Below, piece after piece: positions 641 through 63,218 of a DNA stretch of 64,000 nt. The DNA lies in IMG/VR virus record IMGVR_UViG_2885526491_000007, positions 32,001-96,000 of that record; one strand, 5' to 3'. The translations under genes were made by a program, and so were the position numbers. The first letter of the stretch is position 1. The number at the start of each line of letters is the position of its first letter. The notes beneath the pieces are model-generated. The model was not told the origin of the DNA and did no database searches. It saw only the letters and a list, made by a program, of their open reading frames with translations. The stretch is from a virus (Duplodnaviria; Caudoviricetes).

Positions 641-908
641 AAGTTTATCCCTCCTCACAAAAGTTGATAAAGCCACTATTTTATTTGTCGCGATCACTTT
701 TAGGGACAAAGTCATTCCCTTTGCAGGAAAGTAGATTTGCGGTTCTACAGAAGTGTTCAAAGTTACAATCTTCGCAAATGTCCATTGCTTCATAATCTTC
801 AAGCTTTTCTTCGCTCAATAACCTCTACCTCACTTATCTTGAAACTTGTATTTTATAAGGAAATAGGGTCTAAAAAATCCATTCCAAAAGTATTTCGAAT
901 GTCTTTTT

Positions 909-1094
909 TTAATTACAACTCCAACACACGTATCCATCTATAGCCTGTGAACATTTCGCACATACTCTCTCAATGTATAATTTACCACCTAAAATCTCTA
1001 CTCTTGAATATTCACCAGACTCTTCTAGTTCTTTTTTCTTTTGTTCAAGAAATGATCTTTTATATGACGATTTACACCAAGGAACTAATGCCAT
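909..1094 (-). CDS. small Cys-rich hypothetical protein
   Basis: RBS AAGGAGG; CxxC...CxxC at the C-terminus. Confidence 0.65.
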   Translation of the reverse strand: MALVPWCKSSYKRSFLEQKKKELEESGEYSRVEILGGKLYIERVCAKCSQAIDGYVCWSCN

Positions 1095-1121
1095 AAAAAT
1101 CCTCCTTCGCTTAAGATTTTT

Positions 1122-1904
1122 CTAAAAACAGATATCAACCAGTTCATCATATGTGCTCTCAATTCTTTGATTAGCCAACTCTATGTATTTACTTTCTGTT
1201 TCAAATCCAATAAATCTACGATTGTTTTTTAATGCTGCTACCGCTGTTGTTCCTGATCCCATGCAATTATCTAGTATGATTGAGTTTTCATTTGTGTAAG
1301 TTAACATTAGGAATTCAAAGAGTTCTAATGGCTTCTGTGTAGGGTGTATTGGCTTCATATCGACCCCAAATCTTTGTACACTTCTAGGGTAGCCCGTATG
1401 TGTCTGAATCGCATCTTTATCAGACTTTCCGTAGTTAGTACCGCCAGCCCCTTCAGATTTCTTTCCACGATCCCCTTTATTAATTGTGGGCTTATCTTTT
1501 TCTACTAATCCTTGAGGGTTGTAGATTGGTAAATTCTTATAAAAGACTAGTACATTTTCATGAGCCTTCATAGGCATCTTCTTAGCGTTTAAATGACCAG
1601 TTGCCTTATTCTTTTCCCATATCCACTCGTATTTTAGAAGTTTTAAATTGCTTGATCCAAGTACCTTATCAAATGGTGTCTGAGCTGTTAAAACAATAGC
1701 TCCGTCATCTTTTATAATTCTTTCATATTGAATCCATAATCTTTCTAGATCGATAATACTATCCCATTTGTTTTGAGTCGTCCCATAAGGTAAATCACAC
1801 AGTATCATATCCACGCTAACATCAGGAATTAATTTCATTCCCTCTAAACAATCCATTTGATAAATGCGATTCAGCTCAATACTGCCTAATAGCTCCTTAG
1901 TCAA
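1122..1904 (-). CDS. orphan DNA N6-adenine/N4-cytosine methyltransferase (beta class)
   Basis: Motif IV DLPY precedes HPTQKP and motif I DNCMGSGTT. Confidence 0.95.
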   Translation of the reverse strand: MTKELLGSIELNRIYQMDCLEGMKLIPDVSVDMILCDLPYGTTQNKWDSIIDLERLWIQYERIIKDDGAIVLTAQTPFDKVLGSSNLKLLKYEWIWEKNKATGHLNAKKMPMKAHENVLVFYKNLPIYNPQGLVEKDKPTINKGDRGKKSEGAGGTNYGKSDKDAIQTHTGYPRSVQRFGVDMKPIHPTQKPLELFEFLMLTYTNENSIILDNCMGSGTTAVAALKNNRRFIGFETESKYIELANQRIESTYDELVDICF

Positions 1905-1957
1905 TTGCCCATCTCCTCATATTTTGATGAAACAGTTCTTTCTTGGACTTCTATGTA

Positions 1958-2212
1958 TTAAAATGTTGTACATCCCTTACGATATCTCTTGCCTTTATAT
2001 TTGAATCGCGCGATGAATGTACGAACTAGAATTAATCCTTCATTCACACGCTCAATCACAATTACACCCTTTTCAGTCATCCATCTTATTTTTCCTTGTA
2101 CATTTGGAATGGAGGATATCATCTTAATGAGATATCCCACCCCAACATTGCTTTGCTCACATCTTACGCGCGCATGATCACTGACTTTGATTCTTACTTT
2201 TTGATTCTTCAT
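1958..2212 (-). CDS. hypothetical protein
   Basis: ORF in operon; SDHARVR motif. Confidence 0.65.
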   Translation of the reverse strand: MKNQKVRIKVSDHARVRCEQSNVGVGYLIKMISSIPNVQGKIRWMTEKGVIVIERVNEGLILVRTFIARFKYKGKRYRKGCTTF

Positions 2213-2217
2213 ATGTA

Positions 2218-2439
2218 TTACCGTTTATTAGATTTGCGCTGAGTACGTTGCTTCTTGAATTTAGTCAACACAGATCCTTCCTTTCGACCATTTTCTGCTG
2301 GCTTAACATAATGGAATGAGAAACCCTTTTTAGCTGCTTGCTGTTTAGCTGCAATGACTGCACCAAGATAATCAGCAGGAAGATTGTCGATTACCACACT
2401 TTGATTGTTGTTGTTAGTTGCGATTCCGTAAAATTTCAT
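2218..2439 (-). CDS. hypothetical protein
   Basis: ORF with GGAG RBS. Confidence 0.65.
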   Translation of the reverse strand: MKFYGIATNNNNQSVVIDNLPADYLGAVIAAKQQAAKKGFSFHYVKPAENGRKEGSVLTKFKKQRTQRKSNKR

Positions 2440-4115: not shown

Positions 4116-4378
4116 GGCAAAATCACTCCTTTCAACATTTTACTGAACTACTATTTTGAATTTTTCAGGTAATGCAATATTCTCATTATTATTTATCCAA
4201 CTACTTGTTAACCACTTGTCTACCAATCCTGTATGTTTGTTGATGATTTTGATATTCACTTTTCTCAAATCGATCCACTCCTCAGAAATTAGTTAAGCAG
4301 CATTTTAAAACCCTTGTGTTTACTGGCTTTTTTGATCTTCAATTCTAGGTAAAAGAGCAGTTTCATTTAAGCCTTAAA

Positions 4379-4945: not shown

Positions 4946-4999
4946 TTACATTCTCTCCTTTTGTAAGTAAAAGTATATTTTTACTTAGATTTTCAGTTG

Positions 5000-5302: not shown

Positions 5303-5406
5303 TCCATCATCTTCCTTTCTGATTCTCCATCAAACTCTTCTTTCACAGGAACGGGGTAACAAGCAAAGTCACTTTATTCACTTGTCACTCCCATCTCCCC
5401 GAATGA

Positions 5407-7868: not shown

Positions 7869-8186
7869 ATATGTAAAACTCCTTTTTTATGGTTTTTAAA
7901 TTTCTATGTAACTATTTGTTTTGTTGATGAAATTCAAACTTCATCTACTTTTTATTTTTCCGTTAGCTCGATAGTTATTTGACCGGAAGAATAAGTTGCA
8001 TCTTGATTGATGATTAGATTTGATAATCCGTACTCATCTCGCATTTCTTTTACTATCTCAAAAATTTTCTCATCCAGTAACTCTGTAAACTGCTCAATAT
8101 TCATTTAATAAATCCCTCCCAATCTTGATCAAATCCAACATTCATCAGATTACTTCTCTCAACCCGATGAATGTTGTCTAGTACAG

Positions 8187-8458: not shown

Positions 8459-8505
8459 ATTATACTACCGTTATTCATTATGTCAATATGTATTTTTATT
8501 CTTAA
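8459..8505 (-). promoter_or_regulatory. sigmaA-type promoter with upstream TAAGAATAAAAATA operator-like motif
   Basis: Minus strand TTAAGAATAAAAATACATA-TTGACA-16-TATAAT; same motif at promoters near 14451, 19486, 27406, 43224, 54640, 57977, 63081, 63761 and inverted at 45690/45719. Confidence 0.75.
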
Positions 8506-8704
8506 ATTGTTTTAATGAAAACTATATTTTATCTGCTTATACATCAGTCAAAATATCCATCATCTTTTCAATGTCCTCATCATTCAGCCCATTGACTTCT
8601 TTCCAATCATTTACTAAAAACCTTAAGGGTGGACACTCCAGATCCCACCAAGATAGAAAGCTAAGTTGTTCAAGCTGTTTTACCGTAAACATTTAACACC
8701 TCTC

Positions 8705-9778
8705 TCATATAGAAATTTTAAATTTAGATTCTTCGTACAATTGCTTAAATGTATCCACACCAAGATCACAAGGACTATCCCTGTCTTTAAACATGTTTTT
8801 ATTGTCAAATAACGCATACACATTCCGTGTTTTACCAAACTTAGCAGCTTGTTTTTTTATTGCTTCTACGGACTTATCCTTATCCATAGCAATGACAATA
8901 TTGATGTCTAGCCCTAACTCTTTGATCATCTTTACCTGATACTCGCTAATGTCGTCACCACTAATTGCCAGACAATTTCTATAGCCAAATTGACTGCTTA
9001 ACCAACATGTCTTTTCAGCTTCAAATATGATCACTTCTTTTTCCTCAAGAATGTAGTACATAGCCCTATGCCAGTTGTACCACTCAATCATCTTATTAAA
9101 ATTGATGAGATACATAAATTTATAGATATCTCTATCCTCATAATCCTCATAAATTGTTCTGCCTTTGACAGAGATAATATCCCCGAAACGGTTGTGTATT
9201 GGAAATACAATTCTTTGACTTCTTATGTCATATCCTATGCCAAATTCAATTTGTGTTTTGTAATCAACTCCTTCATCGTAATATTTTTTATGTGGTAACA
9301 TTACAAATTGATTCATGTACTCATCGTCATAGATATTGTTTTCCAAATCATCTCTCAGTCGACTCTTCTTGCGCCCTCTTTTTACATTTTTCAACCAGCT
9401 TAAATGATCTAATGATGGATTGGGAGAATAAACTCCTGATAAAAATTGCTTATAATTTAACTTATCACATATCCATCTTTTCGCCTTTGGTAGACTTTTC
9501 TTTTGCTCATCTAACGTGTAATCATCGAAAACTATGTATGATACTAATCCGTAAATATCGATATCTGATTCTCCAAGCGACCTAATTCTGCTAGATAAAG
9601 ATTCATTAAGGTAAACCTGTACAGACCTTTTATTTGGGGACTCAAATTTGTGGGGCAATTGTGCTTCATATCTATTTTTCTTGGGATTAACATGTTCACA
9701 CCCCATTAATTCAAGCAATTCTCCAACTCGGTCTTCCTCAAGTATCTTCTGTTTGATTAATTTTAAGTCATCAATCAT
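8705..9778 (-). CDS. DNA primase (TOPRIM; YorJ-like)
   Basis: RIVFPIHN...KGR, IIFEAEK, IAMDKD motifs; adjacent to helicase. Confidence 0.9.
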   Translation of the reverse strand: MIDDLKLIKQKILEEDRVGELLELMGCEHVNPKKNRYEAQLPHKFESPNKRSVQVYLNESLSSRIRSLGESDIDIYGLVSYIVFDDYTLDEQKKSLPKAKRWICDKLNYKQFLSGVYSPNPSLDHLSWLKNVKRGRKKSRLRDDLENNIYDDEYMNQFVMLPHKKYYDEGVDYKTQIEFGIGYDIRSQRIVFPIHNRFGDIISVKGRTIYEDYEDRDIYKFMYLINFNKMIEWYNWHRAMYYILEEKEVIIFEAEKTCWLSSQFGYRNCLAISGDDISEYQVKMIKELGLDINIVIAMDKDKSVEAIKKQAAKFGKTRNVYALFDNKNMFKDRDSPCDLGVDTFKQLYEESKFKISI

Positions 9779-9797
9779 GCTGCTCCTCCAAGGGAGT

Positions 9798-11297
9798 TTA
9801 ACGTCCGTTATTTGGTACGACTACTAAGGCAACTTCTTTCCATGTATTGAAGTCGTAGTTTACTTCAAAAATGATTTGCTCATCTTCAGATCCCTCTCGG
9901 TTCTTGGGAAGGAACATGATAAGGTACTTCTTCTCTGGATCAAGCTTGTACGACTTTTTATTCCACGTTCCAAAACCCTTATCTTTCTCCCAATTGTAAG
10001 GAGAAAGTGCGTTCTTTTGTCCGTCGTATTCATCTGCAAATACCAATCTTCCAGCTAAAACGACAGCCGCGACTTCTACAATTTCAGGTGATTTACCGAT
10101 ACAGTCCAAATCAAGATATCTAAACTCTTTACCAATCTTAAGTTGAACAGTTGCAATTGTCGAACAATTATTTGCTTCTTCTTTAATGCAATCATAAAGG
10201 TCTTGAGCTGAATTTGAGAAAGCCAGCCATCTATCTATATTTTGGGTCATGTCTGGCTTAAAAGTGTCAAAATAAATATGCTTATATCCCAATGGACGAT
10301 ACAGTTCAATTCTATTGATAACATCTTCAATCCGATATTTCTTAAGTTGTATGAACTTTATATAATCCGGTCTGTGCTTTTTGAGCCATTCTGCTGCTTC
10401 CTTTAAAGTGTCTTTGATTTGCTTACTAAATCCACCTCTGTTTACAGTATCACGAGGGATCGGCTTATTTAAAATTCTGGCTGCTACGGTGACAAGAAGT
10501 CTAACTCTCCACCTTTTTACCCCCTCCTCATTTGCAAAGACAATTCCTTTTTCTTCTTGCTCAATTAAGCCGAGAACACCCTTCTCAGTTACTAGACTCG
10601 ATTTACCTACGCCCGATGGCAAAACAAGTAAAATAAGATTACCTAATTTTTGTCCATTTATTTTTTTGTTCAGTCGTGGCGAATCAAACAATGGTACTCC
10701 CACATCTTCGCCAGCCTCTAACTGTTCAATTGTCTCGTCTAAGCCATCTGTCAAATTGTATTCTATTACTTCTCCACTGTTTACGTGCGAGAAAGATTCT
10801 TTGTGCTTGAACTGAAAGAAACTTTGCATTTGCTTTAAATTCATATTTGCAAGGGTTGTTACTAATTTTTCATTTGAAGTGTCAATTAAACCCTGTTTCT
10901 GCAAATTTCTGAGTGACTCGTATTTTTGAACTTCACTAAAATGGTATTCATCATTACCCTTGTCTTCATCGCATTCTGCTTTAACCTCTTCAATTGTTCC
11001 ATATCCGCCATACTCATTATAATATTCGAAGTATGACTTCCTTCCTGTCTCTTGTGGCCTTGAGGTGAGAAAAGAATATGTAGTTACATCATCAAAACTC
11101 CTAATGCCATTATCGAACATCTCTTTACCAATATAGTAGTAGTACCACCAAGTAGCTTCAGTGAAAGTTTCTTTGGTAATCTTGTGGGTCTTGTACTTCC
11201 CATATAGACTTGGCGAATTCCAAAGATAACCAATGAAAATAGCTTCGTGTACTTTTGAAGGATCAACGAATTCTTTAATATATACTATATGTATCAC
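9798..11297 (-). CDS. DnaB-like replicative helicase (YorI-like); likely start ATA at 11288
   Basis: Walker A PSGVGKS, FANEE, YFDTFK, TVQL, PKNREG. Confidence 0.9.
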   Translation of the reverse strand: MIHIVYIKEFVDPSKVHEAIFIGYLWNSPSLYGKYKTHKITKETFTEATWWYYYYIGKEMFDNGIRSFDDVTTYSFLTSRPQETGRKSYFEYYNEYGGYGTIEEVKAECDEDKGNDEYHFSEVQKYESLRNLQKQGLIDTSNEKLVTTLANMNLKQMQSFFQFKHKESFSHVNSGEVIEYNLTDGLDETIEQLEAGEDVGVPLFDSPRLNKKINGQKLGNLILLVLPSGVGKSSLVTEKGVLGLIEQEEKGIVFANEEGVKRWRVRLLVTVAARILNKPIPRDTVNRGGFSKQIKDTLKEAAEWLKKHRPDYIKFIQLKKYRIEDVINRIELYRPLGYKHIYFDTFKPDMTQNIDRWLAFSNSAQDLYDCIKEEANNCSTIATVQLKIGKEFRYLDLDCIGKSPEIVEVAAVVLAGRLVFADEYDGQKNALSPYNWEKDKGFGTWNKKSYKLDPEKKYLIMFLPKNREGSEDEQIIFEVNYDFNTWKEVALVVVPNNGR

Positions 11298-11305
11298 TCC
11301 TAATT

Positions 11306-11881
11306 CTAAAGAAAGTTCGAGATATCAAGTTCATCACTTTTATTTTTGTTCTTAAAAGTGTTTTGTAAAGATTGATCCCTTTTACTTTCCATTGCTTGAA
11401 CTCTAACTTCTGCTGCTTCTTGCTTAGATTTGTTCTGCCTGATTTTAAATGCATCATTCAAATACCCTAGCATAGTTGATATTGTGTAGTTTATTTGTGA
11501 CACAACAGCCCACTCGCCTATTTTATTGTTAATTGCATTCCTATTTGTCTGCTCCGCTAGACTGTACGCTTCGAGCATTAAAGCAAAATCAGGCCCAGTC
11601 CTCCACTTACGAGTCCTACTTCCATTCTTATTTTCATACCCAGCCCTCAGATCCTTGAGACGTGAGATGTTTCCTTTTGGTAGTAATAAAATATCGTGCA
11701 ACTTGATTATGTATTGGTATAAATTATTCCACTCTTGATTTTCCCTTGCTGTTTCTGCCTTCAACTTTAAATACTTATCATGACAATACTCAACATGATA
11801 GTATCTCTTATCTTCCTCATATTTCATGTCTTCCTTCTGTCCGTATTGAGTACAGATAGGACACTTAACTGGTCTAGCCAG
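11306..11881 (-). CDS. Zn-binding replication-associated protein (YorH-like); probable CTG start
   Basis: ARPVKCPIC...YYHVEYC; GAGGAGGTGA 5 nt before CTG; synteny with helicase. Confidence 0.7.
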   Translation of the reverse strand: MARPVKCPICTQYGQKEDMKYEEDKRYYHVEYCHDKYLKLKAETARENQEWNNLYQYIIKLHDILLLPKGNISRLKDLRAGYENKNGSRTRKWRTGPDFALMLEAYSLAEQTNRNAINNKIGEWAVVSQINYTISTMLGYLNDAFKIRQNKSKQEAAEVRVQAMESKRDQSLQNTFKNKNKSDELDISNFL

Positions 11882-11894
11882 TTTAATCACCTCC

Positions 11895-12722
11895 TCAAAA
11901 TACAAAACTTTCGAACTCAGGCAATCTCAACAAATTGTTTTTGGTATATCCTCTATGCTTGACTACACACTTGATGACAGGATCAATATAAACCGTATCC
12001 TCTGTCTCTCTCTTTTTAAGTTGCTGGAATACTTTATATCCCGCTTTTCTCTCGTTTGTGCCGACAGCTAAACTCATTACCCCAACCATTCGCTTACCAT
12101 CAGACAAGAGCCAACCAAATTCATTTTTCTTGTATCCAGCAATGAAGTATTCTCCTATCTCATACGCAATTACCTTCAACCACTTGTCGGATCGCTTATC
12201 TATCTCATACCTTGAATTAATATCCTTCAGAACGATTCCCTCAAGTTTCTGCTGCTTGGCAAGGTTAAAGTATTCAATTCCATTTCCTCTTATAAAGATC
12301 GACTTTGTATAATAGTCATTGTCCGTGAAGGCATTAGAAAGTATCACTTTGCGTTCCATAAGTGGTTCAGAAGCCACACTTTCACCCCTATAGTTAATGA
12401 TATCGAACGCACAGAACGTAACTTTATGTCTGCTTTTCTTGGACATAAACCTTTCCATGATTGATTCAAAGTTTGGTTTACCGTCTGAGTCAGTTACGAT
12501 CAGTTCTCCATCAAGCGTTGTCCCTTTTTGTATCGGTATGTTTTTAACCAACTCAGGAAACTTGGCTGTAACATCATTGTTGTGTCTTGTATAGATTTTT
12601 ACCTTATCTCTGTAATCGACGATAAGACGTATACCATCGAGTTTAAGCTCTGTTATATGCATGTTACTGTTGAAAGGCATATTGTTTGGAGCCTTGTATT
12701 GCAACATTGGAGAAGTAAACAT
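11895..12722 (-). CDS. ATP-dependent DNA ligase
   Basis: ELKLDGIR, LDGEL, AFDI, EGIVLK, RSDKWLKV motifs. Confidence 0.95.
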   Translation of the reverse strand: MFTSPMLQYKAPNNMPFNSNMHITELKLDGIRLIVDYRDKVKIYTRHNNDVTAKFPELVKNIPIQKGTTLDGELIVTDSDGKPNFESIMERFMSKKSRHKVTFCAFDIINYRGESVASEPLMERKVILSNAFTDNDYYTKSIFIRGNGIEYFNLAKQQKLEGIVLKDINSRYEIDKRSDKWLKVIAYEIGEYFIAGYKKNEFGWLLSDGKRMVGVMSLAVGTNERKAGYKVFQQLKKRETEDTVYIDPVIKCVVKHRGYTKNNLLRLPEFESFVF

Positions 12723-12744
12723 ATTATCACCCATTTAAGTATAT

Positions 12745-12758
12745 CAAACAGGTGTTTG
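12745..12758. promoter_or_regulatory. putative LexA/DinR SOS box upstream of the ligase
   Basis: CAAACAGGTGTTTG versus consensus CGAAC-N4-GTTCG. Confidence 0.5.
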
Positions 12759-12915
12759 TATTTTCAGCGGTAATATATGTATGACTTAATACATCTACTC
12801 ACTCTTCTCACAAGCTTCTGAATCTTTATTATCACTATCTTTGCTCTTATAATGTTTTAATATGTCGTCTACTGTTTTAAGCTCTACTTCCACTTACAAT
12901 CATTCCAATCTTTGT

Positions 12916-13161
12916 TTATTCATTTTCTTCCCATTCATTTATTTCTACAAAGCGTTTTGTGCCATCATCCGTATAACCGAAAAACATGTTTGCTGGTCTA
13001 GCCCATAAAAGATCATCCTCGCCAATGTAGACAACTAACACCTCTCTGGTTTCAGTGTGTCTTGCGAGTCTTATAAGTTTGTATAATCCACCCTTATAAT
13101 GTCTAAATGATTGACCCTTGGTTTCCTCGAAACTCAATAAAATCACCTCACTAATACTCAC
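12916..13161 (-). CDS. DUF1653 protein
   Basis: FRHYKGGLY...ARHTETRE.LVVY...LWARP.NMF. Confidence 0.9.
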   Translation of the reverse strand: MSISEVILLSFEETKGQSFRHYKGGLYKLIRLARHTETREVLVVYIGEDDLLWARPANMFFGYTDDGTKRFVEINEWEENE

Positions 13162-13220
13162 TCTTTCTCTCGATATCTCCCATTTACTATTCCAATATTC
13201 TGATGAAACTGTACTTTTAC

Positions 13221-14402: not shown

Positions 14403-14746
14403 TTAATTAATTCCTCCTTTAGATTCATCTTACCATACATTTTAGTAATTGTACATATTTTTATTCTTAAATAATTCTAATTAAATCAACCTTTTACAAA
14501 GATTCTTGATGATATATTTGCGGCATCGCCAAAAGTTTTAACAAACACGAAATCCAACACCTCGAAATAGCGGTTAAATTGGATATCTGCCCACTTATAC
14601 AACAAGACTGGTTCGGTATATTTTGTAATTCATTGAGATCCATCAGATATGCTTCTGAACAAGTGGTTCCCCTTTTTAGATACTCTATGTAGGTAATACG
14701 TTCCGTTCTCATGTTCAATGACTAGATCCACTCTTTGCACTTTAGT

Positions 14747-15295: not shown

Positions 15296-15331
15296 ACCAA
15301 TTTCTCCCCTTTCCTGTGAAAGTAAACTTTC

Positions 15332-15571
15332 TTAGAGATTATCTGCATCTGGAACAGATCTATCGACATTAGCTGTTACTTCTATGTCGCTGCATACTCT
15401 ATTGACTAATTTTCTTGCATCGTCTGCTGTAACTTCAAATAGTTCAGCTAGTTTATTTAAAGTTACATGACCTAGTAAATATAAACCCATCAGCTCGATT
15501 GGATTCAACTTCTTAATGTCTGTGTGATAATAATCGATCATCAAATTATTCGACTCTTTAGATGAGAACAT
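15332..15571 (-). CDS. hypothetical protein, possible HTH
   Basis: VTLNKLAELFEV; bounded by palindromes 15316 and 15590. Confidence 0.6.
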   Translation of the reverse strand: MFSSKESNNLMIDYYHTDIKKLNPIELMGLYLLGHVTLNKLAELFEVTADDARKLVNRVCSDIEVTANVDRSVPDADNL

Positions 15572-15603
15572 AGTTCACCTCCACTCTGTGTGAAAGAAAG
15601 ATT

Positions 15604-15804
15604 TTATATAAACTTAAAATCACCCTTCTTGAATGTGAGACCACCATATGAGCTGCTAAGTTGTTTTGTTGCGACATCATCAAACTCCACTAGGTATAAG
15701 TCTTCAGAATTGCTTGTTCGGATCGGGTTTTCTTTTATGGTTCCTGATTTTCCAATAGCTTCTTTCCAAACTGTTGAATCGTTAATTATAACTCTTTTCT
15801 TCAT
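15604..15804 (-). CDS. hypothetical protein
   Basis: Bounded by palindromes 15590 and 15826. Confidence 0.65.
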   Translation of the reverse strand: MKKRVIINDSTVWKEAIGKSGTIKENPIRTSNSEDLYLVEFDDVATKQLSSSYGGLTFKKGDFKFI

Positions 15805-15855
15805 ACTATTTCACCCTTTTCTCCATGAAAGGAAAATTTGATCAGAATACTCTTA

Positions 15856-16221: not shown

Positions 16222-16257
16222 TTTATCTCAACCTTTCTAGATCAAATGTACGTTTCT

Positions 16258-16896: not shown

Positions 16897-16939
16897 TTCA
16901 GTTCATCTCCAAGTCACTCACAATAAAATATTTGTTTGA

Positions 16940-45668: not shown

Positions 45669-45689
45669 TTCATCTTGTCTCCCACTGTT

Positions 45690-45748
45690 TAAGAATAAAT
45701 ATATGTATTTGATAAACTAAGAATAACATGCATTTATTAATAAGTCAA
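45690..45748 (-). promoter_or_regulatory. promoter of the agr-like operon with two operator-like motifs
   Basis: Minus strand TTGACT-17-TATTCT; TAAGAATAA motifs on the plus strand at 45690 and 45719. Confidence 0.6.
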
Positions 45749-45785
45749 ACACTTTTATAAAAAAAAGAAGAATAAAGGATTAACC

Positions 45786-46811: not shown

Positions 46812-46812
46812 T

Positions 46813-48138: not shown

Positions 48139-48330
48139 TCTCCTTTAGATTCATTATAGCATATAAGCATAAATATAATACATTATCTAAAGGGATAACA
48201 ATATATCTTTATTATTGCTTCATAATATTTTAACAATTAAATCTCACTAAAAAACTATTACTTAACTTCTGATAACTAATTTACTACAATTTTATTGCTA
48301 TTGCAAAACGTTTATATAGCAAAAAAAGCC

Positions 48331-48549
48331 TCATAATACTTGAGGCTTCTCATTATCTTTAATCCATTGTTTTAGATTTAAATTAGTTTTTATTATTGTA
48401 TTGTTCTCATTATCATAAATTCTATAACCATTAAACATGAAATTGTTTAGTTCATGAGGTTTGTTTGTTCCAATGCCTAAAAACTTCCACGTCTCTAGCT
48501 TCGAATTTGAATCATATTTTACCAACTTCATTAAACAATACCTCTTCAT
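48331..48549 (-). CDS. hypothetical protein
   Basis: GAGGGGG RBS. Confidence 0.55.
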   Translation of the reverse strand: MKRYCLMKLVKYDSNSKLETWKFLGIGTNKPHELNNFMFNGYRIYDNENNTIIKTNLNLKQWIKDNEKPQVL

Positions 48550-48649
48550 ACAAACTAAGCCCCTCTGTTACTACGATAATTAACATGTTAAAATGAAGAT
48601 TCATGAATACTCCCATTGTTTTGGGAGTCTTTTGCTATGCAAAAATATT

Positions 48650-48666
48650 GGAACGATTTTCGTTCC
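48650..48666. promoter_or_regulatory. palindromic operator upstream of the XRE gene
   Basis: GGAACG-ATTTT-CGTTCC. Confidence 0.5.
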
Positions 48667-48702
48667 ACCTTACTTCTATTATTATAAAAGGAGACTTTTT
48701 AC

Positions 48703-48930
48703 ATGTCAAGTTCTAATACTAATTGGTGGTTTGAGATCACGCTAGAGCAAATTCTTGCTTCAAAAGATATATCTAAAAGAGAGCTGTCTAGGCTAACAGG
48801 AATTAGACATTCTACTATTAATGATTTATGTAATAATAAGGTCAAACAAATCCCTTTAAGTAATTTAGCTTCTATATGTGAGGCATTAAATATTACCAAT
48901 TTAAACGAGCTAATTAAACTACATAAGTAA
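48703..48930 (+). CDS. XRE/Cro-type HTH regulator
   Basis: ISKRELSRLTGIRHSTINDLCNN...LASICEALNI. Confidence 0.92.
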   Translation: MSSSNTNWWFEITLEQILASKDISKRELSRLTGIRHSTINDLCNNKVKQIPLSNLASICEALNITNLNELIKLHK

Positions 48931-48934
48931 TAGA

Positions 48935-49303
48935 TTACATTTGTAAAGATATTGACAATGCTTTACTTATTGGCTGTTGAAATTTTTCTGGAAGAGTAGC
49001 AATTTTAAACTCTAATTGATCTTTGGATATTGTCATTATCTGCTCTAATAGAATAATACTGTCGTCATAAAGTTCAATCTCATTTGCCTCTACTCTAACA
49101 TGAGTTGGCATTGGCTTTTTTACTTTGCTTGTAACTGGAGCCACAATAACCACTGGACTAAATTTATTTCCTTTATCATTCCCCAAAACAACTACTGGTC
49201 TTTCTCCGCTTTGTACACTACCTTTATTTCTTCCTAAATTAGCATTCCACATATCAAGTCGTTTAACTTCTTTATTCATAATTCGATCCATAGCCACTGC
49301 CAT
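48935..49303 (-). CDS. mazF: MazF/PemK-family endoribonuclease (orphan)
   Basis: GSVQSGERPVVVLGNDKGNKFSP..IVAPVTS...PTHV...DSIILLEQI.TISK, close to Bacillus NdoA/MazF. Confidence 0.92.
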   Translation of the reverse strand: MAVAMDRIMNKEVKRLDMWNANLGRNKGSVQSGERPVVVLGNDKGNKFSPVVIVAPVTSKVKKPMPTHVRVEANEIELYDDSIILLEQIMTISKDQLEFKIATLPEKFQQPISKALSISLQM

Positions 49304-49400
49304 GATATCACACTCCGCATTTTCATTATATTTATTGTTTATATTTGTTTGTCATCTGTATATTTATTATTATAATAGATTGAACTTCATATAACAATAG

Positions 49401-49414
49401 GGAACTTATGTTCT
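49401..49414. promoter_or_regulatory. LexA/DinR SOS box upstream of mazF
   Basis: GGAACTTATGTTCT overlapping a minus-strand TTGACA. Confidence 0.65.
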
Positions 49415-49442
49415 GTCAAGCATTTTTAGTCGGGGGGTTAAA
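49414..49442 (-). repeat. 29-bp inverted repeat, right copy
   Basis: TGTCAAGCATTTTTAGTCGGGGGGTTAAA. Confidence 0.95.
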
Positions 49443-49515
49443 TATTTCCAAAACAAGGTATATTCTATTGACAAATAGGATATATATGTAATTAAAAGTA
49501 ATCTGAGGTGAAAAC

Positions 49516-50001
49516 ATGATAAGAAAAGATAGTTGGAATGCTGATGAGGATAAATTACTAGCTACTATTGTATTAAACTATATAACTACTGGAGAAACAC
49601 AATTAAAAGCATTTTATGATGTAGGCCTAGAGCTTGATCGCACAGCCGCCGCCTGTGGTTTTAGATGGAACTCTTACCTTAGACAAAAATACATTGAAGA
49701 GATTATAGAAGCCAAACATAGAAAATTAAGCAATAAACGCTCTTCGATAAAATCTCCTCCATTTACTCTTAATATTGAATACATTGTTGAATACCTTCAA
49801 GCACTTAAACAGGATCTAATATTGTCTGAAGCTCAGATACGGCTCATCAAGGTAAAGATACAGGATGTATCATCAGAAATCGATTCTAGGCGCTCTGAGA
49901 TGTCTCTAGATGCGAGTCAAAATAGAGACGCTCTTGCAGCTCTAATTGCTAAAGCATCAGAACTAGGATTATTTGAACACAACAAAAAACCCGCCATTTA
50001 A
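49516..50001 (+). CDS. rsfA: RsfA-family sporulation transcription regulator
   Basis: RKDSW..DED.LLA..VL.YI..G.TQL.AF..VG..L.RTAAACGFRWNS.LR..Y. Confidence 0.92.
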   Translation: MIRKDSWNADEDKLLATIVLNYITTGETQLKAFYDVGLELDRTAAACGFRWNSYLRQKYIEEIIEAKHRKLSNKRSSIKSPPFTLNIEYIVEYLQALKQDLILSEAQIRLIKVKIQDVSSEIDSRRSEMSLDASQNRDALAALIAKASELGLFEHNKKPAI

Positions 50002-50014
50002 TTGGTGGGTTTTG
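49984..50014. terminator. bidirectional terminator
   Basis: AAAACCCGCCA...TGGTGGGTTTT between convergent genes. Confidence 0.7.
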
Positions 50015-50041
50015 TTATTTAATCTATGTGAAATCTACATT

Positions 50042-51022
50042 TTATTTAGTCTTCATCAAAATTGGTTCCAAATAATTGTTTGAAAGTTCCTCCAGCATAC
50101 CCAAGGCATTTTCTTGAGATGAAAACCCTTGTCCAGCAGAAGGAAATGGTATTAAGAAAATATACAAGGTCTTGTTATCTAATGGTACTTCTGCTTTAAA
50201 CGCTTTTTGTAACTGTCCCTTGCTGTTTCTCATATCACATGTAAAAGGTATTGTTGAAAAAATATCTTTTCCAAACATTACTTCAAGAGCATCCTTTTTA
50301 AAGCCACCCGCTCCACCAATCCCAAGAAGAATTTGTGCTTTCGATTTTATTAAAGCATTTTTTATTATACTTGCTCTAAAATTCATATCTTCTTTGAAGT
50401 CACTAAAACTTGAAGTGGTATACTTTTTGGGATTGAATCTGCCTTTAGGTTTATTGAAAACTGCTAAATAGGGATTATCTTGATTTGGCTTGTCTTCAGG
50501 TGATGCTGCAACGGCTCCATATTCAATCGGCCAGATTCTCTCTGTTAGCCTAGGGAGTGGCCTCCAGTCAATTAAAGCAGTTTGAATTCCCTCAGCTCTT
50601 GGCTTATAAAGTCTTCTACCAATGTACTCTTTGATTGCTTCATATGCCAGTACATTAGTAGCACCTTGAAACCAATTGTTGCTTGAGCTTCGTTCATGGG
50701 CTAGACAAAGCCTTGCAATGGCAGCATTAAATACACCAGCAGTAAAATCTTTCGTCCGTTTATTCTCATGAGTTGCAAGAAGTTGATCTGAATCTGGATA
50801 AAAAAATCCCTCTCGCCAATTGCTAGCCTCAATACTGTAATTGCTAACATCCCCACCAGCTAAAATTAACTGCGTTCTGGCTTTTACATTCTCTGTTACA
50901 CTATACCCGCCTGTCCCCTCTTCATTGCCGAAAACTAAAATATCAGCATTAGGAATATCGCCACAGCCTATGTATGAGAGAAGTATTTTATATTCTTCTT
51001 TGCTTAGCCTCCAGTTTTCCAC
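50042..51022 (-). CDS. hypothetical protein, possible UDG-superfamily glycosylase
   Basis: YIGCG...ADILVFGNEEG, ILLGIG, IPFPS. Confidence 0.55.
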   Translation of the reverse strand: MENWRLSKEEYKILLSYIGCGDIPNADILVFGNEEGTGGYSVTENVKARTQLILAGGDVSNYSIEASNWREGFFYPDSDQLLATHENKRTKDFTAGVFNAAIARLCLAHERSSSNNWFQGATNVLAYEAIKEYIGRRLYKPRAEGIQTALIDWRPLPRLTERIWPIEYGAVAASPEDKPNQDNPYLAVFNKPKGRFNPKKYTTSSFSDFKEDMNFRASIIKNALIKSKAQILLGIGGAGGFKKDALEVMFGKDIFSTIPFTCDMRNSKGQLQKAFKAEVPLDNKTLYIFLIPFPSAGQGFSSQENALGMLEELSNNYLEPILMKTK

Positions 51023-51565
51023 AACACAATTCCTCTCCTTCTAAGTTTTAATCAAACTTGCATTTCATTATGTTTTTAGTCTATCTTCTCCAGTTCACCG
51101 CATTCAATTGCATCCTCAAGAGCTTCAGCAAAGTCTTTTCCTCCGTATTCGGCATTAGAGAGCATCCCAAAAACATCACTATCATTCGGTTCATAACCCT
51201 TTGATCTCAACCACTCCATTATCTTTGCTTCTGCTGCTCTTGCAGAAAGTAAGTGACTATATACAGAATCAGCCAAAACAATTATTTTCTTAGGCACTTT
51301 AACGCTCATAATTAGTCAGCTCCTTTTTTCTAAATGAAACATGCCTTTTACTTAATCACAAAATTCAAATCTAAACATAAAAAATTCGTCATGTTCATAC
51401 CGCTTGTATTTATTGTTTTTAGTTGCAATCACATGCTGATCATTGAGATCATCTACAATCTCAATACCGTACTCCTTAACTTGGAAATCGTATTTCTTCC
51501 CCAGTGTAAACTCCTCATCACGTCTATCATGAACATATTTAACTTTCATCGTATTACTCCTCTCG

Positions 51566-51928: not shown

Positions 51929-52235
51929 GGTCGCACCACCTTTAATGGGGATTTATTGCTTAGTTTGCTTTCTTAGTTCTAGGAGCTCTTTCAGGTACGG
52001 TAGAGCCCATGCAGTTGGAGTATATGAAGTTCCGTATGTAAATTCGCCAATTGATGGCATTGCGTATTCATGTTCTAATAAGTACTCATCTGGAAAATCG
52101 TAACGCTCACTATTTCTATCCATTTCCTTGATGAGATCTTCAAGCGTCTCTGGTTGATCACTCATTTATCATTGCTCCTTTATATTTCATTCTGTAAAAC
52201 ACATCTTTCATTGATTCTTGCTGGATATAGAAATG

Positions 52236-53310: not shown

Positions 53311-54191
53311 TAGACAGACTCCTCTTAGCTGTTTTTTGGGAATGAAACAGTCATTTGATTAAAACTGACTAAATTTATCTTTCAGGTAAAAGTTTCCGAG
53401 TTTGAATTCATACATATCTCTATCGATTTCTCGTATCTTTGATTTGTGGAGCATAATAGTGTATTTTTCGTCTTCTTCAAATTCGTATACTCGTACAAAA
53501 TCATCATTCTCTTTTGCTACCTCAAAGAAAAACACCTTGTCTCCCATCCCTCTGTTTTCATCTTTAGGGAATACACATGGTAGTTTAATCATAATATCCT
53601 CCTCCTAAATTGCTTATAAAATAGTTATTTGATTATCTTCTAACATTAGTTAACCACTTTAAAATTAATTTCAGCCAAATCATGAACATTCACCAATACT
53701 GTCTCACTGTCTACAGTAACAAATTCAATGAATTCATTCACTCCAGTTCTAAAGGCTTTATTAATCGCTGCATATACAAAGTCTTTAGCATGCTCTGCCA
53801 TAATTTCAATAGTTACCTTGTCATCAAGTCCGAAGTCTGTCTGATAATTTCTTTCCGCTCCACTCTTATACAATAAAGAAATCTTGGTTTTCATCTATTT
53901 TTCCTCCGTTCTGTTAATGTTTATATTCATAATCCATCTAGAAATGTTGGAGTTGTAAGTACTAAAATAATAAGAATACCAGCAGTTAAGGCAAATGATC
54001 CAGCTTTAGAATATTCTCTATTCTTAAGGGCAACAATTGAACTCACCAATGTATAGATTCCCCCCAACAAATACCAATAATAAAACATTCTTATCCCTCC
54101 TCTGTTTGTATGAAATAAACCTTTCACAACCATATGTATAACATGTCGCCGCAATCTACAATACTATTATACGGCGACATAATAAAGATAA

Positions 54192-54527: not shown

Positions 54528-55031
54528 TATGTTTTCACCTCACATAGAGATATAGTTTTTCTCATTTACAATACTAAGTTACTGTTTCGAGTACGCTGTT
54601 TCCTTATATATGAATTATATCATCATATTATTACTTTTACAATATATATTTTCATTCTTAAAAGAGGCGATTGTTAGTCACCTCTTTAGTTGCTCACTTA
54701 TATCTATGTATTTGTGCTGCTTCTTTAAGGGTAATCCATTTTCCGCTCCGATTCATAACCCATAGTGTCCCATCTGCAAAGCGTCTCCCATGCTTAAACA
54801 TTGTAATAGTGCTCTTTTCCTGTTTCTTGTACAACTACGTTGATGTGTTGTCTTAATTGACTTGTGAGAGCATAAACACGATCCATGAGCACATAAGCCA
54901 TAGTATCTTTGCAACGTCCCTCTTCTTTAATAGAATCTACAACTTCTCCATTTGCTATCAGGTTATAAGTATTCATTAATAATTTCCTCTTTTCGTATTT
55001 TTATTGTTTAAATGATTATAAAAGACTTATT

Positions 55032-55415
55032 TTACTCAAACATCCTGCATTCAGCTCGTCCAATTTCCCACCCCAACTGACAGCAGTTTGAAGCGGCTCT
55101 ATCTCTATTTGTAGTATCGTGTGGGATAAAGTGTCCAATCTTTTTACAAGCCTGTCCTTCTCTAATACATGTGTTGTAACAGCCTCTTTCCCAAACAATC
55201 ACGAAATGATCCTTCAGCTCTGTGTAATCCATATTAACTTTTTCATGATTTAGATAGAAGAAATAGATATTTTCACTTACATCAACATGGACTATGTCGT
55301 TGACTTCAACTTTATACTCTTTCTTCATTTGTTCAGCCAGTTCCTTATGCATACCCCTTATTGGGGGCATTACTCTCGAAATTTCCTTAATGCATCTTGC
55401 AACCACTTCAGACAC
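55032..55415 (-). CDS. hypothetical protein
   Basis: AAGGAG RBS, GTG start. Confidence 0.6.
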   Translation of the reverse strand: MSEVVARCIKEISRVMPPIRGMHKELAEQMKKEYKVEVNDIVHVDVSENIYFFYLNHEKVNMDYTELKDHFVIVWERGCYNTCIREGQACKKIGHFIPHDTTNRDRAASNCCQLGWEIGRAECRMFE

Positions 55416-56153: not shown

Positions 56154-56689
56154 CCCCTCATTAGTCTTTGTGAAAGAATCCTTTTACATACACTTTGCAA
56201 ATTCCATCACTTCTTTTAGTCTATGAGTGGAGGAAGGGTAATTACTCTGTAATAATCCAATGTTCTCTTTTAGTTCAGAAAGCATGTTTACTTTAAAGGT
56301 AATGTTACTGTCACCCATGTACTTGCATCCAATTAAAGCTATAATATTCGATTTTATATCACTTAATATAGAAAAATCTGTGCTGATAAAATTATCAACT
56401 TCACACTCATAAAATCTCAAGGTGTGCTCCACTTTCATCCAATTCATATCTTGCTTCATTATAAATTCTCCTTTTTCGTTTTAATGAAATAATCTTTTCA
56501 TATACTTTAAATTTGATTCTCATAATCTACTATACGATGATAAACATCCTCCATACACTCTTTTTCTGTTGGGTTAAAATTAGGTGAATTAACTATGGTA
56601 TCAAGTAAACTCTGCCTAACCATCTCTCGCTCTGAGTCAGATAAGACTAGTTCCATTCCACCCTCACTCCTTATAAAATATTCATTTCA

Positions 56690-57304
56690 TTATCTATGCT
56701 TATAGTTAGTTGAAAACATATCTTTTCTCAGTTTAGCCATCTTACCATTGCTTCGATTAAGGAATACTACTCCTTCTGCCTCAACATCTGGATTTAGTAG
56801 TGACTTGAGACTAAGAATCCATTCTTTCCACATATCATAATCGTCTGTTTGTGGAAAATCCTTATAAACACTTACTCCATCCTTATGAGGTTCAAACGTA
56901 TACCACATATTTCGATCTAAGCCATATTTATTTCCTTGAATATTCACGCCAATAGCCTCTCCATAATATTCACCATCTTTAAATTTCTTTGATCTCTTAG
57001 AAACTCGATTAACAACAGCTTCGTTGATGTATTTATATTGAGGATCGTTAAGTTCAGTCTTCACATAACCCTTATGTTTTTGATTTCTTGCATAGATTTC
57101 AAGCTTAACTCCATCAACAATAATTTTCACATTCGTTCCATCTATCTTCTCAAGAACAATTGCCTGTGCTGGATCAAAGCACCATTCCCAACCGCTTGCT
57201 ACTTCTGTTGTACATAGACCAGTCTCCATATCACGGATAAATGGAGGAAACATTTTTTCGAATTCTAGATACTTAGTCACTAGTTCAATATTTTCACGAT
57301 TCAT
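56690..57304 (-). CDS. ATP-dependent RNA ligase-like protein
   Basis: EKIDGTN (motif I), YGEAIG, EGVVF, MAKL; bounded by palindromes 56673 and 57336. Confidence 0.85.
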   Translation of the reverse strand: MNRENIELVTKYLEFEKMFPPFIRDMETGLCTTEVASGWEWCFDPAQAIVLEKIDGTNVKIIVDGVKLEIYARNQKHKGYVKTELNDPQYKYINEAVVNRVSKRSKKFKDGEYYGEAIGVNIQGNKYGLDRNMWYTFEPHKDGVSVYKDFPQTDDYDMWKEWILSLKSLLNPDVEAEGVVFLNRSNGKMAKLRKDMFSTNYKHR

Positions 57305-57349
57305 AATTTATTTCTCCTCTAGTTAATTTATTTGGGTGAAAGGATCATT

Positions 57350-57730
57350 TTATTCAGTTCTATCGCCCACATCAACCAATGCTTTATACGCTATCTCTTT
57401 TAACTCAGCTATGTACTCAATCAGCTCTTCGTGGCTGACCTCTTCAACAGCTATTCCATGTGTATCAATTGCATTCAGTGCTTTAAGCATTATATGTTCC
57501 CTTCCCATCTCCGTCTTGTCCTTCAAGAAATCGTCTTCTTTTAAATGTACTCCGATTTCTCTAATCCATTTCTTTGCTTTCGCGATGGTTTCAAGTTGTG
57601 GAAGTTGGTGTTTAAAATTTTCAATCCCCTCAATTGACCACTCTGGTTCTACTACCCAGTCCTTCTCTGATGCATTCCAAATGATAAATCCTTTATATTT
57701 ATAATCGCCCTGCCACTTTGATTCGGCCAT
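57350..57730 (-). CDS. hypothetical protein
   Basis: Bounded by palindromes 57336 and 57747. Confidence 0.7.
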   Translation of the reverse strand: MAESKWQGDYKYKGFIIWNASEKDWVVEPEWSIEGIENFKHQLPQLETIAKAKKWIREIGVHLKEDDFLKDKTEMGREHIMLKALNAIDTHGIAVEEVSHEELIEYIAELKEIAYKALVDVGDRTE

Positions 57731-58041
57731 TAAAGATCAACTCCTTATGAAATTATAGTTTCATTTAAACTGCCACAGTGATAGGTGGAGCGATTACTAT
57801 GATATTCTCATCCTCTTCACAAAGGGATTTGAAAAGTTGCTGCTGTTCTTCTGTAGGAAATCCATATGTATTGTATTCAATTTTATCAAGTATCTTTTCA
57901 ATTACAAGAACCTTGTACACGACAATCACCTCATCTATTTGATAACCTTATACTATCACATATTTTAATTAATGTATACATATATTTATTCTTAAATGAT
58001 GAAAAAGAGATGCTTTAATGCATCCCCTGTTATCTCACAAC

Positions 58042-58700: not shown

Positions 58701-58816
58701 CCAGTATGTTCTAAGTTGTCTGTATACATATATTCTAACACTGGAGATTCATATGGGTAAAATTAATCTTTCATAAAAAGAAGACACAGCTCAATGTGAA
58801 CCGTGCCTATATCCTA

Positions 58817-59734: not shown

Positions 59735-59867
59735 TCTTTCACCTCTACAAATCCACATCGGTTGTGGGCATGACTCATTAAGTAGGTCTAAAGAATTATA
59801 TGCTGATTTCCCAAATTTAACAATATGAATTTATATGTCAGTATAAAATCAGACTTTTATATGATTT

Positions 59868-61936: not shown

Positions 61937-62037
61937 ATGTATCTCCCCCTATTAAATGCATTCAACAACTATTATATCACGTAAACTAATAGAGGAACAT
62001 GTGTGCGATACCAATCATATCCTGTAAAATAACTGTT

Positions 62038-62493
62038 TCATTCTAAAACCTTCCCATATATCTCTTCCATAGATACATAGATCACTTCTCCACTAGGAAG
62101 ACTTACATTATAGCCTTCTCTTTTTGGTTTTCTCTTAATCAATTCATTTTGAAAGCTGAAAACATTATTTTTGTTATGGTTCTTGATGTATTTTCTAGTG
62201 TATATACGTACAAGGAAATAGCTAAAAGGGTCGTTTATTTTCATACCAACATCCTCAAATTTAATTATCCCTGCATGATATGTACATTTCATTTCTCTAT
62301 TCCACAGGCTACCTCTGAAAACATTATCGCCCTTCCACTCATAATTGTGGAACCATTTTATAAAAGTTGAATAACTGGCCCAACCAGACTTAATTGAACC
62401 ATCCAACGTCATTGATAAATGAATCATCCAATCGATAGTTATAAGTAACAAGGCAAGAATCAAAATAGCTAAAACTATCATTAAGGTAGTTAT
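62038..62493 (-). CDS. membrane-anchored protein (paralog of 4619..4945); ATA start possible
   Basis: Shared motifs; AAGGAGGAG RBS before ATA. Confidence 0.75.
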   Translation of the reverse strand: MTTLMIVLAILILALLLITIDWMIHLSMTLDGSIKSGWASYSTFIKWFHNYEWKGDNVFRGSLWNREMKCTYHAGIIKFEDVGMKINDPFSYFLVRIYTRKYIKNHNKNNVFSFQNELIKRKPKREGYNVSLPSGEVIYVSMEEIYGKVLE

Positions 62494-62528
62494 CTCTCAA
62501 CTCCTCCTTTCTATTTAAAATCCTGCTC

Positions 62529-62765
62529 TCATTGGAATGCCTTGACAAGCTTATGATGAATTTCATCTTTAGAATCGAATGCACTAATCAATACATCGCG
62601 CTCATTTCGTCCGTAAGCTGCAACAATTACTCTATCCAGATCCATTACATGAATACATTTTGCACCAACATAATATGTAGTATCACCAATGACTACCTCA
62701 AAATCAAACGATTCTCCATTGTTCATATTAAAAATAACATTCGCTACATCTTTCAGGTTTTTCAC
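62529..62765 (-). CDS. hypothetical protein
   Basis: AAAGGAGG plus GTG; bounded by palindromes 62515 and 62780. Confidence 0.65.
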   Translation of the reverse strand: MKNLKDVANVIFNMNNGESFDFEVVIGDTTYYVGAKCIHVMDLDRVIVAAYGRNERDVLISAFDSKDEIHHKLVKAFQ

Positions 62766-62796
62766 TCTTATTCCTCCTTTTGAAATACTGTTTTGA

Positions 62797-62943
62797 TCAA
62801 CTCTCATTGCCGAACGTATCTTGATACCAATCTTCAAAGCCAAACGGTTCTTCTCCTTTATGGTAGCCCCATTCAACATAATTGTCGTAAATCTCCACAA
62901 TCTCGTCTTCTGTAAGTTCTTCTCTTCTCTTGTTTATCTGCAT
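62797..62943 (-). CDS. hypothetical protein
   Basis: GGAGGG RBS; bounded by palindromes 62780 and 62965. Confidence 0.6.
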   Translation of the reverse strand: MQINKRREELTEDEIVEIYDNYVEWGYHKGEEPFGFEDWYQDTFGNES

Positions 62944-63218
62944 CGTGTATCCCTCCATTTCTATGTAAAATCGTTGTTTCACTTAGTCTTATGTATCGTT
63001 ACAGCACATTGTTTCTTTTGCTGGTACATCGTTTCTTACTTCCTGATCTAATCATAGCATCATAACACTATAATTACAATACATATTTTTATTCTTATTG
63101 TGTTTAATTTCATTTAACAATGAAAATCCTTGATAAAAGTATCATACTGAACTAGAATAATCCTATTGCATGAACTAGTACTTTAGGAGGAGCAGTACAC
63201 TATGTTTACTGATGCTTT

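Follow-up and report, generated by a model that had tools for sequence, protein, structure and literature searches.

Candidate position-addressed recombination sites between the early genes of an SPbeta-like Paenibacillus prophage

The DNA analysed here, a stretch of 64,000 nucleotides referred to as the window, comprises bases 32001-96000 of a 134,573-bp IMG/VR provirus (IMGVR_UViG_2885526491_000007; G000 below). It belongs to an SPbeta-like Paenibacillus prophage, nearly all the window genes being on the minus strand, and it is studded with copies of an 18-bp dyad, RTVAAA-N6-TTTBAY, located between genes. Among related phages the joints between homologous and unrelated DNA repeatedly fall at these dyads, the 6-bp core is nearly always the same on both sides of the comparison and the order of the genes is retained. 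The original prediction, made from the letters of the window, had viewed the dyads as the sites of an integron-like system that lets the phage acquire, excise and reorder accessory genes. The recombination part of that proposal is supported in a revised form, as address-specific allelic exchange and not integron-like shuffling, with a mechanism that we infer. On balance we lean towards regarding each dyad as a recombination site with a position-specific address, at which allelic cassettes are exchanged, probably through an orphan tyrosine recombinase of the phage.

The window contains 40 strict matches to the pattern, compared with 1.25 ± 1.2 expected from 100 dinucleotide shuffles (shuffle maximum 6), which is close to the figures first reported, 38 sites and about one expected by chance; the five positions offered as examples (13203, 15590, 29100, 51334 and 56673) are all present. 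The whole prophage holds 56 strict matches versus 2 for a reversed-pattern control, and when the spacer between identical arms was varied from 0 to 12 bp, a spacer of 6 returned 56 matches and every other spacer 0-6. Relaxed sites were defined with a symmetrised 30-bp position weight matrix (PWM) at a score of at least 12, yielding 77 sites in the whole prophage versus 0-6 in shuffles. With 53 PWM sites and one strict-only site the window total is about 54, and the earlier figure of "about 60" was roughly right; a site claimed at 34066 scored below 12 and was not recovered.

Placement is as stereotyped as had been proposed. Only four of the 77 PWM sites are inside called open reading frames (ORFs) and 73 are intergenic, though coding sequence makes up approximately 84% of the DNA. 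In most cases the stop codon of the upstream gene lies -4 to +18 nt from the dyad, with the T-V-A of the arm often constituting the stop codon, and the next start codon is typically found 16-32 nt past the dyad, which precedes the ribosome-binding site (RBS). Dyads are dense in the early operons and sparse in the late genes. The PWM scan revealed none at 8532-13203 or 43164-50028, the primase-helicase-ligase and repressor/agr blocks previously described as site-free, and the reported bias at the core edges was also recovered, the first base being A in 1 of 40 strict sites and the last being T in 3 of 40.

Conservation reaches 5 bp beyond each arm (T at -5, A at +5), resulting in an 11-6-11 layout in which the full dyad of about 28 bp possesses two inverted 11-bp arms (tcTTn-RTVAAA) flanking the 6-bp core. 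Two inverted arms around an overlap of 6-8 bp characterize the core-type sites of tyrosine recombinases (Xer/dif, lox, FRT), and the dyad has this arrangement. Both arms show equal sets of variants at equal frequencies and no co-variation; Watson-Crick pairing across the arms is seen at positions 1/18 in 25 of 56 sites and at positions 3/16 in 21 of 56. This fixed geometry together with the absence of arm covariation points to a symmetric protein site and not to a hairpin.

The tight distance to the following RBS, conservation of an A five bases past the dyad in the gene direction and the annotation of two SPbeta dyads as stem-loops in the GenBank record would agree with a transcript or transcription signal, i.e. 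a per-gene promoter, weak terminator, RNase site or translation element. We consider this very unlikely, since the arms are symmetric, about half of the arm pairs are unable to base-pair, no -35/-10 pattern accompanies the dyads, and some of these are situated upstream of real promoters, outside the downstream transcript. An intrinsic terminator or other RNA hairpin was rejected on the grounds that the arms lack compensatory changes, and a sigma-A promoter on the grounds that flank information is low, that arms with G at position 3 (ATGAAA, GTGAAA) are without a -10-like TA and that the true promoters have a separate box. In comparisons that serve as leads and not as tests, none of the ComK, CodY, Rex, Fnr, CcpA, parS, Hin hix and Bacillus subtilis dif sites fits the dyad spacing. 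YonO promoters were likewise rejected, because transcription by the YonO polymerase begins at a single, late site (PMC5467207).

No close relative of the window phage was found in IMG/VR via its MrpR homologue, and five relatives reached through the helicase align to about 15% of it at 65-77% identity. As this is too little shared DNA, breakpoints were mapped among the relatives themselves, using G001, G002, G004 and G005, which are mosaics of each other at 91-93% identity. Of 1018 ends of megablast high-scoring segment pairs, 203 fall within a dyad ± 6 bp versus 13.5 expected, a roughly 15-fold excess over uniform, and in the alignments homology begins or ends at the dyad edge. The prediction that the sites are cassette boundaries with repeated recombination, at which the breakpoints of relatives should be found, is borne out by these figures. 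Mosaic joints that fall exactly at the dyads argue for built-in recombination joints rather than repressor operators.

Junction pairs were defined by 40-nt flanks, one with at least 85% identity and the other with at most 55%, which left 95 clean pairs. Per-base identity across them forms a step, remaining at about 0.9-1.0 through the near arm and core and dropping in the far arm. The core is identical at all six positions in 89 of the 95 pairs. At the variable positions of the near arm the pairs match in 57/58 and 57/58 cases where the upstream flank is homologous, and in 33/33 and 30/33 where the downstream flank is. Far-arm positions 1 and 3 match at frequencies of 0.45 and 0.79, versus 0.50 and 0.73 for random site pairs. 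The points of change lie in the interval from the core to the variable far-arm positions, with a resolution bounded by the invariant AAA-core-TTT.

Nine dyads have an upstream-only partner plus a downstream-only partner, that is, reassortment around a constant core. At the dyad with core AGATTA, four genomes carry the upstream (U) and downstream (D) flanks in the combinations U1-D1, U1-D2, U2-D1 and U2-D3, with the upstream arm tracking U and the downstream arm tracking D; this is reassortment exactly at the dyad. Dyads also delimit 1.5-2.5-kb blocks that some genomes have and others lack. Between SPbeta and phi3T, homology begins right at the dyad edge at SPbeta 83687 and 113663, and in six SPbeta-like isolates the match to the yorZ region ends at query base 218, the last base of the dyad.

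One junction was located inside the window. The only bacterial contig sharing a high-identity cassette with the window phage is from Paenibacillus xylanilyticus, and it shares one cassette (a 326-aa gene, about 95% DNA identity) and two weaker stretches, not the whole phage. At the dyad at 51051-51068, recognized as a mosaic junction from this alignment, the homology passes ATCAAA and the core (5/6) and ends in the far arm. The strict dyad at 50028-50045 (core TCTACA) has an identical copy in the same contig, and the core CATGCC of the strict dyad at 51334-51351 is kept at the orthologous site of G004 and G001. For laboratory phi3T-SPbeta hybrids, 15 of 16 joints are reported in long homologous regions and one non-homologous joint near yosA (bioRxiv 10.1101/2020.05.06.055103); we could not place the latter relative to the dyad at SPbeta 116414. 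A separate observation concerns the G002 dyad matching G004 12048 and G001 124208, which contains an 8-bp internal duplication (GTAAAACTAC-AAAACTAC-TATTTTAT) that could have arisen by replication slippage or staggered-cut repair.

In six genome pairs all of the 76-132 proteins shared per pair are collinear, with no off-diagonal orthologues, and more distant comparisons are likewise collinear, indicating that cassettes are replaced in place and not shuffled. The proposed re-ordering of accessory genes is not supported. An integron-like system, in which any site recombines with any other and cassettes are captured, excised as circles and re-ordered, would explain the cassette-sized units of RBS plus ORF ending in a dyad and the indels limited by dyads. 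We nevertheless judge it highly improbable in view of the unchanged order, the identical cores at exchanging sites and the lack of an attI-like acceptor, adjacent integrase or hairpin-forming attC. The integron analogy thus finds no support, no single attI-like acceptor or array having been seen; excision circles were not looked for.

Core statistics were calculated from 193 sites in four independent genomes, using within-genome pairs. Identical core pairs number 0 versus 3.2 expected, reverse-complement pairs 0 versus 3.2, and palindromic cores 0 versus 4.7 (P=0.0095), and core pairs with at most one mismatch number 28 versus 52-53 (P<=0.003; also under a GC-preserving null). Hexamers at nine control offsets showed no deficit. 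Tolerance of unlike cores, which had been suggested for these sites, agrees neither with this avoidance of similarity within genomes nor with the constancy of the core across junctions. Cores composed entirely of A and T are also scarce in the four genomes (2 versus 9 expected from column shuffles).

The mechanism that we propose would operate as follows. The arms are common to all dyads, and the core, being unique to each position in a genome, would serve as its address. On an encounter between related phages or prophages, strands would be exchanged inside the AAA-core-TTT of dyads with the same core, and the gene block on one side would be swapped for the other allele with the order kept. 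Exchange would be catalysed by a dedicated site-specific recombinase requiring core identity, as do other tyrosine-recombinase systems, and the repulsion between cores would represent selection against within-genome deletions and inversions.

The original prediction had proposed looking for a tyrosine recombinase elsewhere in the phage, and YopP-like and YomM-like candidates are present; the tyrosine recombinases are located far from the dyad arrays. These phages integrate by means of a serine integrase, and their extra tyrosine "integrases" are an acknowledged puzzle (PMC13245101). Judged from sequence, the best candidate for the enzyme would be the orphan YopP/SroD-like tyrosine recombinase, followed by the YomM-like and host Xer enzymes. 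The YopP-like protein displays the full R..K..HxxR..H..Y signature and is present in 8/8 phages compared. The YomM-like recombinase, encoded outside the window at G000 127044-128045, shares 59% identity with YomM of SPbeta, a value well above that of most other proteins. The YomM-like family has HxxK instead of HxxR throughout, and the recombinase that replaces it in G002 and G004 has the canonical HxxR. More tentatively, the phages may possess a natural, genome-wide form of recombinase-mediated cassette exchange, with 40-80 addressed sites per phage, a conserved orphan YopP/SroD-like or YomM-like enzyme, co-resident SPbeta-type phages and an order that is never scrambled. If so, it would explain why several "extra integrases" exist beside the serine integrase in the SPbeta/E3/Perkons/Tsamsa group.

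The dyads might instead be the sites of a dimeric phage protein other than MrpR that silences, insulates or organises the early operons in the manner of mycobacteriophage stoperators, with recombination being passive: as the sole conserved islands between unrelated cassettes, they would be places where Sak4-like or RecJ-like annealing recombinases cross. The window encodes two candidate dyad binders, a YopQ/SroE-like DndB-family protein (46813-48138, minus strand) and a YopB-like small helix-turn-helix (HTH) protein (48703-48930, plus strand), each kept in 8/8 phages compared. Symmetric arms without covariation, an intergenic position before the RBS, the early-dense and late-sparse distribution and the retention of the dyad across very distant phages all suit such a protein site, as does the existence of a second repressor in SPbeta phages, SroE, the targets of which are unknown (bioRxiv 10.1101/2025.11.27.690993). 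The passive part is favored by the presence of a RecJ-like gene and of an AAA_24-family protein (40548-41696, minus strand; Pfam AAA_24) at the position that the Sak4-like annealing protein YorG has in SPbeta (yorG annotation), which could be the driver of short-homology recombination and hence of a rival mechanism, by the finding that control gene boundaries are often junctions too and by the co-inheritance of some far arms. We nonetheless rate this combined explanation as unlikely. A neutral spacer should show neither core repulsion nor a palindrome deficit. Crossovers in the 6-bp arms of unlike-core sites predict about 50% foreign cores, whereas the core changed in only 4 of 95 pairs. Direct repeats of the promoter box, which are longer, sharing roughly 17 bp (by eye), are tolerated in the genome, so general short-homology recombination alone explains the core repulsion poorly.

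Several observations weigh against addressed exchange by a dedicated recombinase. The window phage is without a close relative, and most of the junction evidence comes from its cousins. At far-arm positions 16 and 18 the match frequency somewhat exceeds chance (0.76 and 0.66 in the upstream-homologous pairs versus 0.56 and 0.53 for random pairs) and one hybrid arm was seen, indicating that not every crossover took place at one fixed edge of the core. Junctions are also frequent at gene boundaries that lack a strict dyad, in 34/78 control pairs versus 124/171 at dyads; mosaicism exists without the dyad and is made stronger and sharper by it. On the enzyme side, the YomM-like slot in G002 (35862-36908) and G004 (104572-105618) holds another recombinase, 27% identical, and YopP is only 29% identical between the window phage and SPbeta, though the arms are nearly the same. 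The pairing of any recombinase with the dyads is our own inference, and their deep conservation and bias to early-gene junctions would also fit a basic role in expression or genome architecture. The promoter box is absent from G001-G005 and was hence unusable there as a control class of junctions.

The MrpR/SroF-like repressor encoded in the window (45786-46811, minus strand; Pfam MrpR_N_CB 1.4e-24, MrpR_C_cat 1.4e-17) has a recombinase fold, and MrpR of SPbeta is a protein with a tyrosine-recombinase fold that binds a repeated element (PMC10516654). That the dyads form an operator array (SPBRE) of this master repressor, a version of the alternative raised originally, is scarcely credible. The phage promoters already have a second repeat, the phi3T-like box TTAAGAATAAAWATA-tGTAcA, of which about 14 copies exist, every one shortly ahead of a sigma-A-like -35/-10 pair. 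Over its first 15 bases it is almost the same as the SroF box of phi3T, which is asymmetric, 26 bp long and recognized by an SroF monomer (bioRxiv 10.1101/2025.11.27.690993). The TTAAGAATAAAWATA box is likely the operator of the phage's MrpR homologue, which is predicted to bind the promoter boxes and not the dyads, and the boxes provide a promoter map of the early region.

In SPbeta, chromatin affinity purification sequencing (ChAP-seq) of MrpR gave 10 peaks only, all of them SPBRE promoters (PMC10516654), and the SPbeta dyads at 24127, 44416, 113663 and 132746 are far from these. The SPBRE sequence, TAGACAAATACAAAWAATATGTATATAAT, was recovered at the ten ChAP-seq targets; it is asymmetric and overlaps sigma-A promoters. 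The dyad is symmetric and mostly within operons, and does not resemble the MrpR/SroF operator. SPbeta and phi3T share the dyad, almost always as ATAAAA-N6-TTTTAT, despite divergent repressors and boxes. An operator role would be easier to reconcile with phi3T, the genome of which has five SroF boxes: three abut or overlap a dyad (107906-107948, 121039-121081 and 125051-125091). At two of these three, the -10-like TAAAAT in the repressed promoter is made up by the first arm of the dyad.

The dyad was sought in further genomes. The five IMG/VR relatives possess 42-80 strict dyads versus 1-5 in controls, SPbeta 15 at spacer 6 versus 0-5 at other spacers, and phi3T 16 versus 2 in the control. Corresponding values are 38 versus 2 for Psychrobacillus phage Perkons, 29 versus 3 for Geobacillus virus E3, 19 versus 2 for Bacillus phage vB_BcoS-136 and 23 versus 4 for Bacillus phage Tsamsa. 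In a 4.2-Mb Lysinibacillus chromosome the dyad is not enriched (67 versus 75 in the control), and a single one occurs in the initial ~50 kb of the G005 record, which is probably host flank. The dyad is a feature of a broad set of large siphoviruses of Bacillales and not of their hosts.

Among known systems the closest in layout are the pdif (XerC/XerD) modules of Acinetobacter plasmids, in which many 28-bp 11-6-11 sites delimit discrete accessory modules occurring in varied combinations. In these plasmids the arms match host dif, the orientation of the sites alternates around modules and the recombinase has been inferred rather than demonstrated. The dyads are alike in being 11-6-11, in splitting accessory genes into modules and in having an inferred enzyme; unlike pdif, their arms are symmetric and phage-specific, to our knowledge with no clear match to B. 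subtilis dif, and they are found at nearly every early-gene junction with the order strictly kept. Heterospecific lox and FRT sites share their arms but not their spacers; recombination is restricted to sites whose spacers agree, and cassettes are exchanged in place without deletions. That form of cassette exchange is engineered and employs 2-3 spacer types, whereas each genome here has 40-80 natural dyads, each with its own spacer, and the spacer requirement is deduced from statistics only. Like integron attC/attI systems, the phages have promoterless ORF units each ending in a putative recombination site and a very variable cassette content. They differ in that there is no folded single-strand attC, no attI with adjacent integrase and promoter, and no re-ordering, and in that the cores would have to match.

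Short conserved intergenic elements at the joints of mosaic modules are familiar from the PeSL cassettes of T4-type phages and the "linkers" of Susskind and Botstein. PeSLs consist of a promoter and a stem-loop and are thought to act via homologous recombination; the dyad is an 18-28-bp element with a position-specific core that shows signs of selection. The stoperators of mycobacteriophage L5 number dozens of sites in small intergenic gaps and are 13 bp, asymmetric, orientation-dependent and bound by the immunity repressor; we know of no link between them and mosaic joints. Dyad placement is stoperator-like, but the dyads have symmetric arms, and a different box is predicted for the immunity repressor. 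With SPBRE and Phi3TRE the dyad has in common its repetition within the same phage family and the ATAAAA hexamer, the elements sometimes abutting (PMC10516654; bioRxiv 10.1101/2025.11.27.690993). Unlike the dyad, these are asymmetric, occur in 5-14 copies on sigma-A promoters and are bound by a recombinase-fold protein as a monomer.

It is an old question whether the mosaic joints of phages lie at gene boundaries through selection after random illegitimate recombination or through dedicated linkers. Here a defined 18-28-bp element marks such joints at base-pair resolution, its spacers bearing statistical signs of selection, and it is set apart from the MrpR/SroF operator, the focus of current work. 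The additional tyrosine "integrases" of these phages, so far unexplained, would also gain a possible function. Since the dyad is present in SPbeta and phi3T, tractable phages of B. subtilis, the idea is directly testable, and should the address rule prove correct, the dyads would constitute a set of orthogonal recombination sites ready for use.

The other dyads of the window are given below without strand, PWM scores being in parentheses. Strict sites are located at 4349-4366 (19.5), 4967-4984 (19.9), 5329-5346 (20.7), 13203-13220 (22.4), 15590-15607 (22.6), 15825-15842 (19.6), 16923-16940 (17.9), 17960-17977 (22.2), 18355-18372 (18.6), 18900-18917 (20.2), 19361-19378 (17.4), 24838-24855 (20.8), 25084-25101 (19.7), 26437-26454 (24.1), 26846-26863 (23.1), 29100-29117 (22.8), 30892-30909 (21.2; within a crudely called ORF), 34227-34244 (21.0), 36106-36123 (16.5), 38538-38555 (21.8), 40518-40535 (23.2), 52194-52211 (17.0), 53342-53359 (18.5), 53616-53633 (16.7), 54110-54127 (21.2), 56170-56187 (26.2), 56484-56501 (19.4), 56673-56690 (17.8), 57336-57353 (21.9), 57747-57764 (22.0), 58757-58774 (18.5), 59843-59860 (18.2), 62024-62041 (18.0) and 62965-62982 (23.1). 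To these are added strict sites at 8515-8532, which is in the PWM list and lies 12 nt upstream, in the gene direction, of a promoter box, at 55018-55035, which lies 9 nt upstream of a box-like element, and at 7873-7890, which has the strict pattern only and scores below 12. Relaxed sites are present at 1927-1944 (12.1), 7927-7944 (14.0), 14480-14497 (15.2; 12 nt upstream of a promoter box), 15316-15333 (16.5), 16241-16258 (15.1), 22161-22178 (14.9), 23870-23887 (13.5), 27971-27988 (14.8), 29645-29662 (16.4), 30608-30625 (14.4), 34688-34705 (14.7), 35514-35531 (15.0), 36996-37013 (14.6) and 43147-43164 (14.2).

Operator boxes at promoters are found on the minus strand at 8491-8503, where the phi3T-type box AAGAATAAAAATA is followed by TTGACA-N17-TATAAT, and at 14456-14468, 27411-27423, 43231-43243, 54647-54659, 57981-57993 and 63084-63096. 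An additional box, beside the MrpR-like gene, is on the opposite (plus) strand at 45691-45703.

The gene set of the phage is SPbeta-like, including the MrpR/YopR homologue, YopQ-like and RecJ-like proteins, primase, helicase and ligase, with a YonO-type polymerase further on. The similarity of a short ORF at 15856-16221 (about 121 aa) to resolvase-type serine recombinases is limited to their catalytic domain; the ORF has no DNA-binding domain and is not conserved among the relatives. The lysogeny module of 5.7 kb is bracketed by a perfect 29-bp inverted repeat (43727-43755 and 49414-49442), both copies of which end in TTGACA, and contains LytTR, agrD/agrB, membrane protein, MrpR-like, YopQ-like, HTH and MazF genes. 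In this module the position of the SPbeta arbitrium genes is taken by genes for an AgrB-family protein (Pfam 2e-19) and a MazF/PemK toxin (1.4e-24), at 43927-45668 and 48935-49303.

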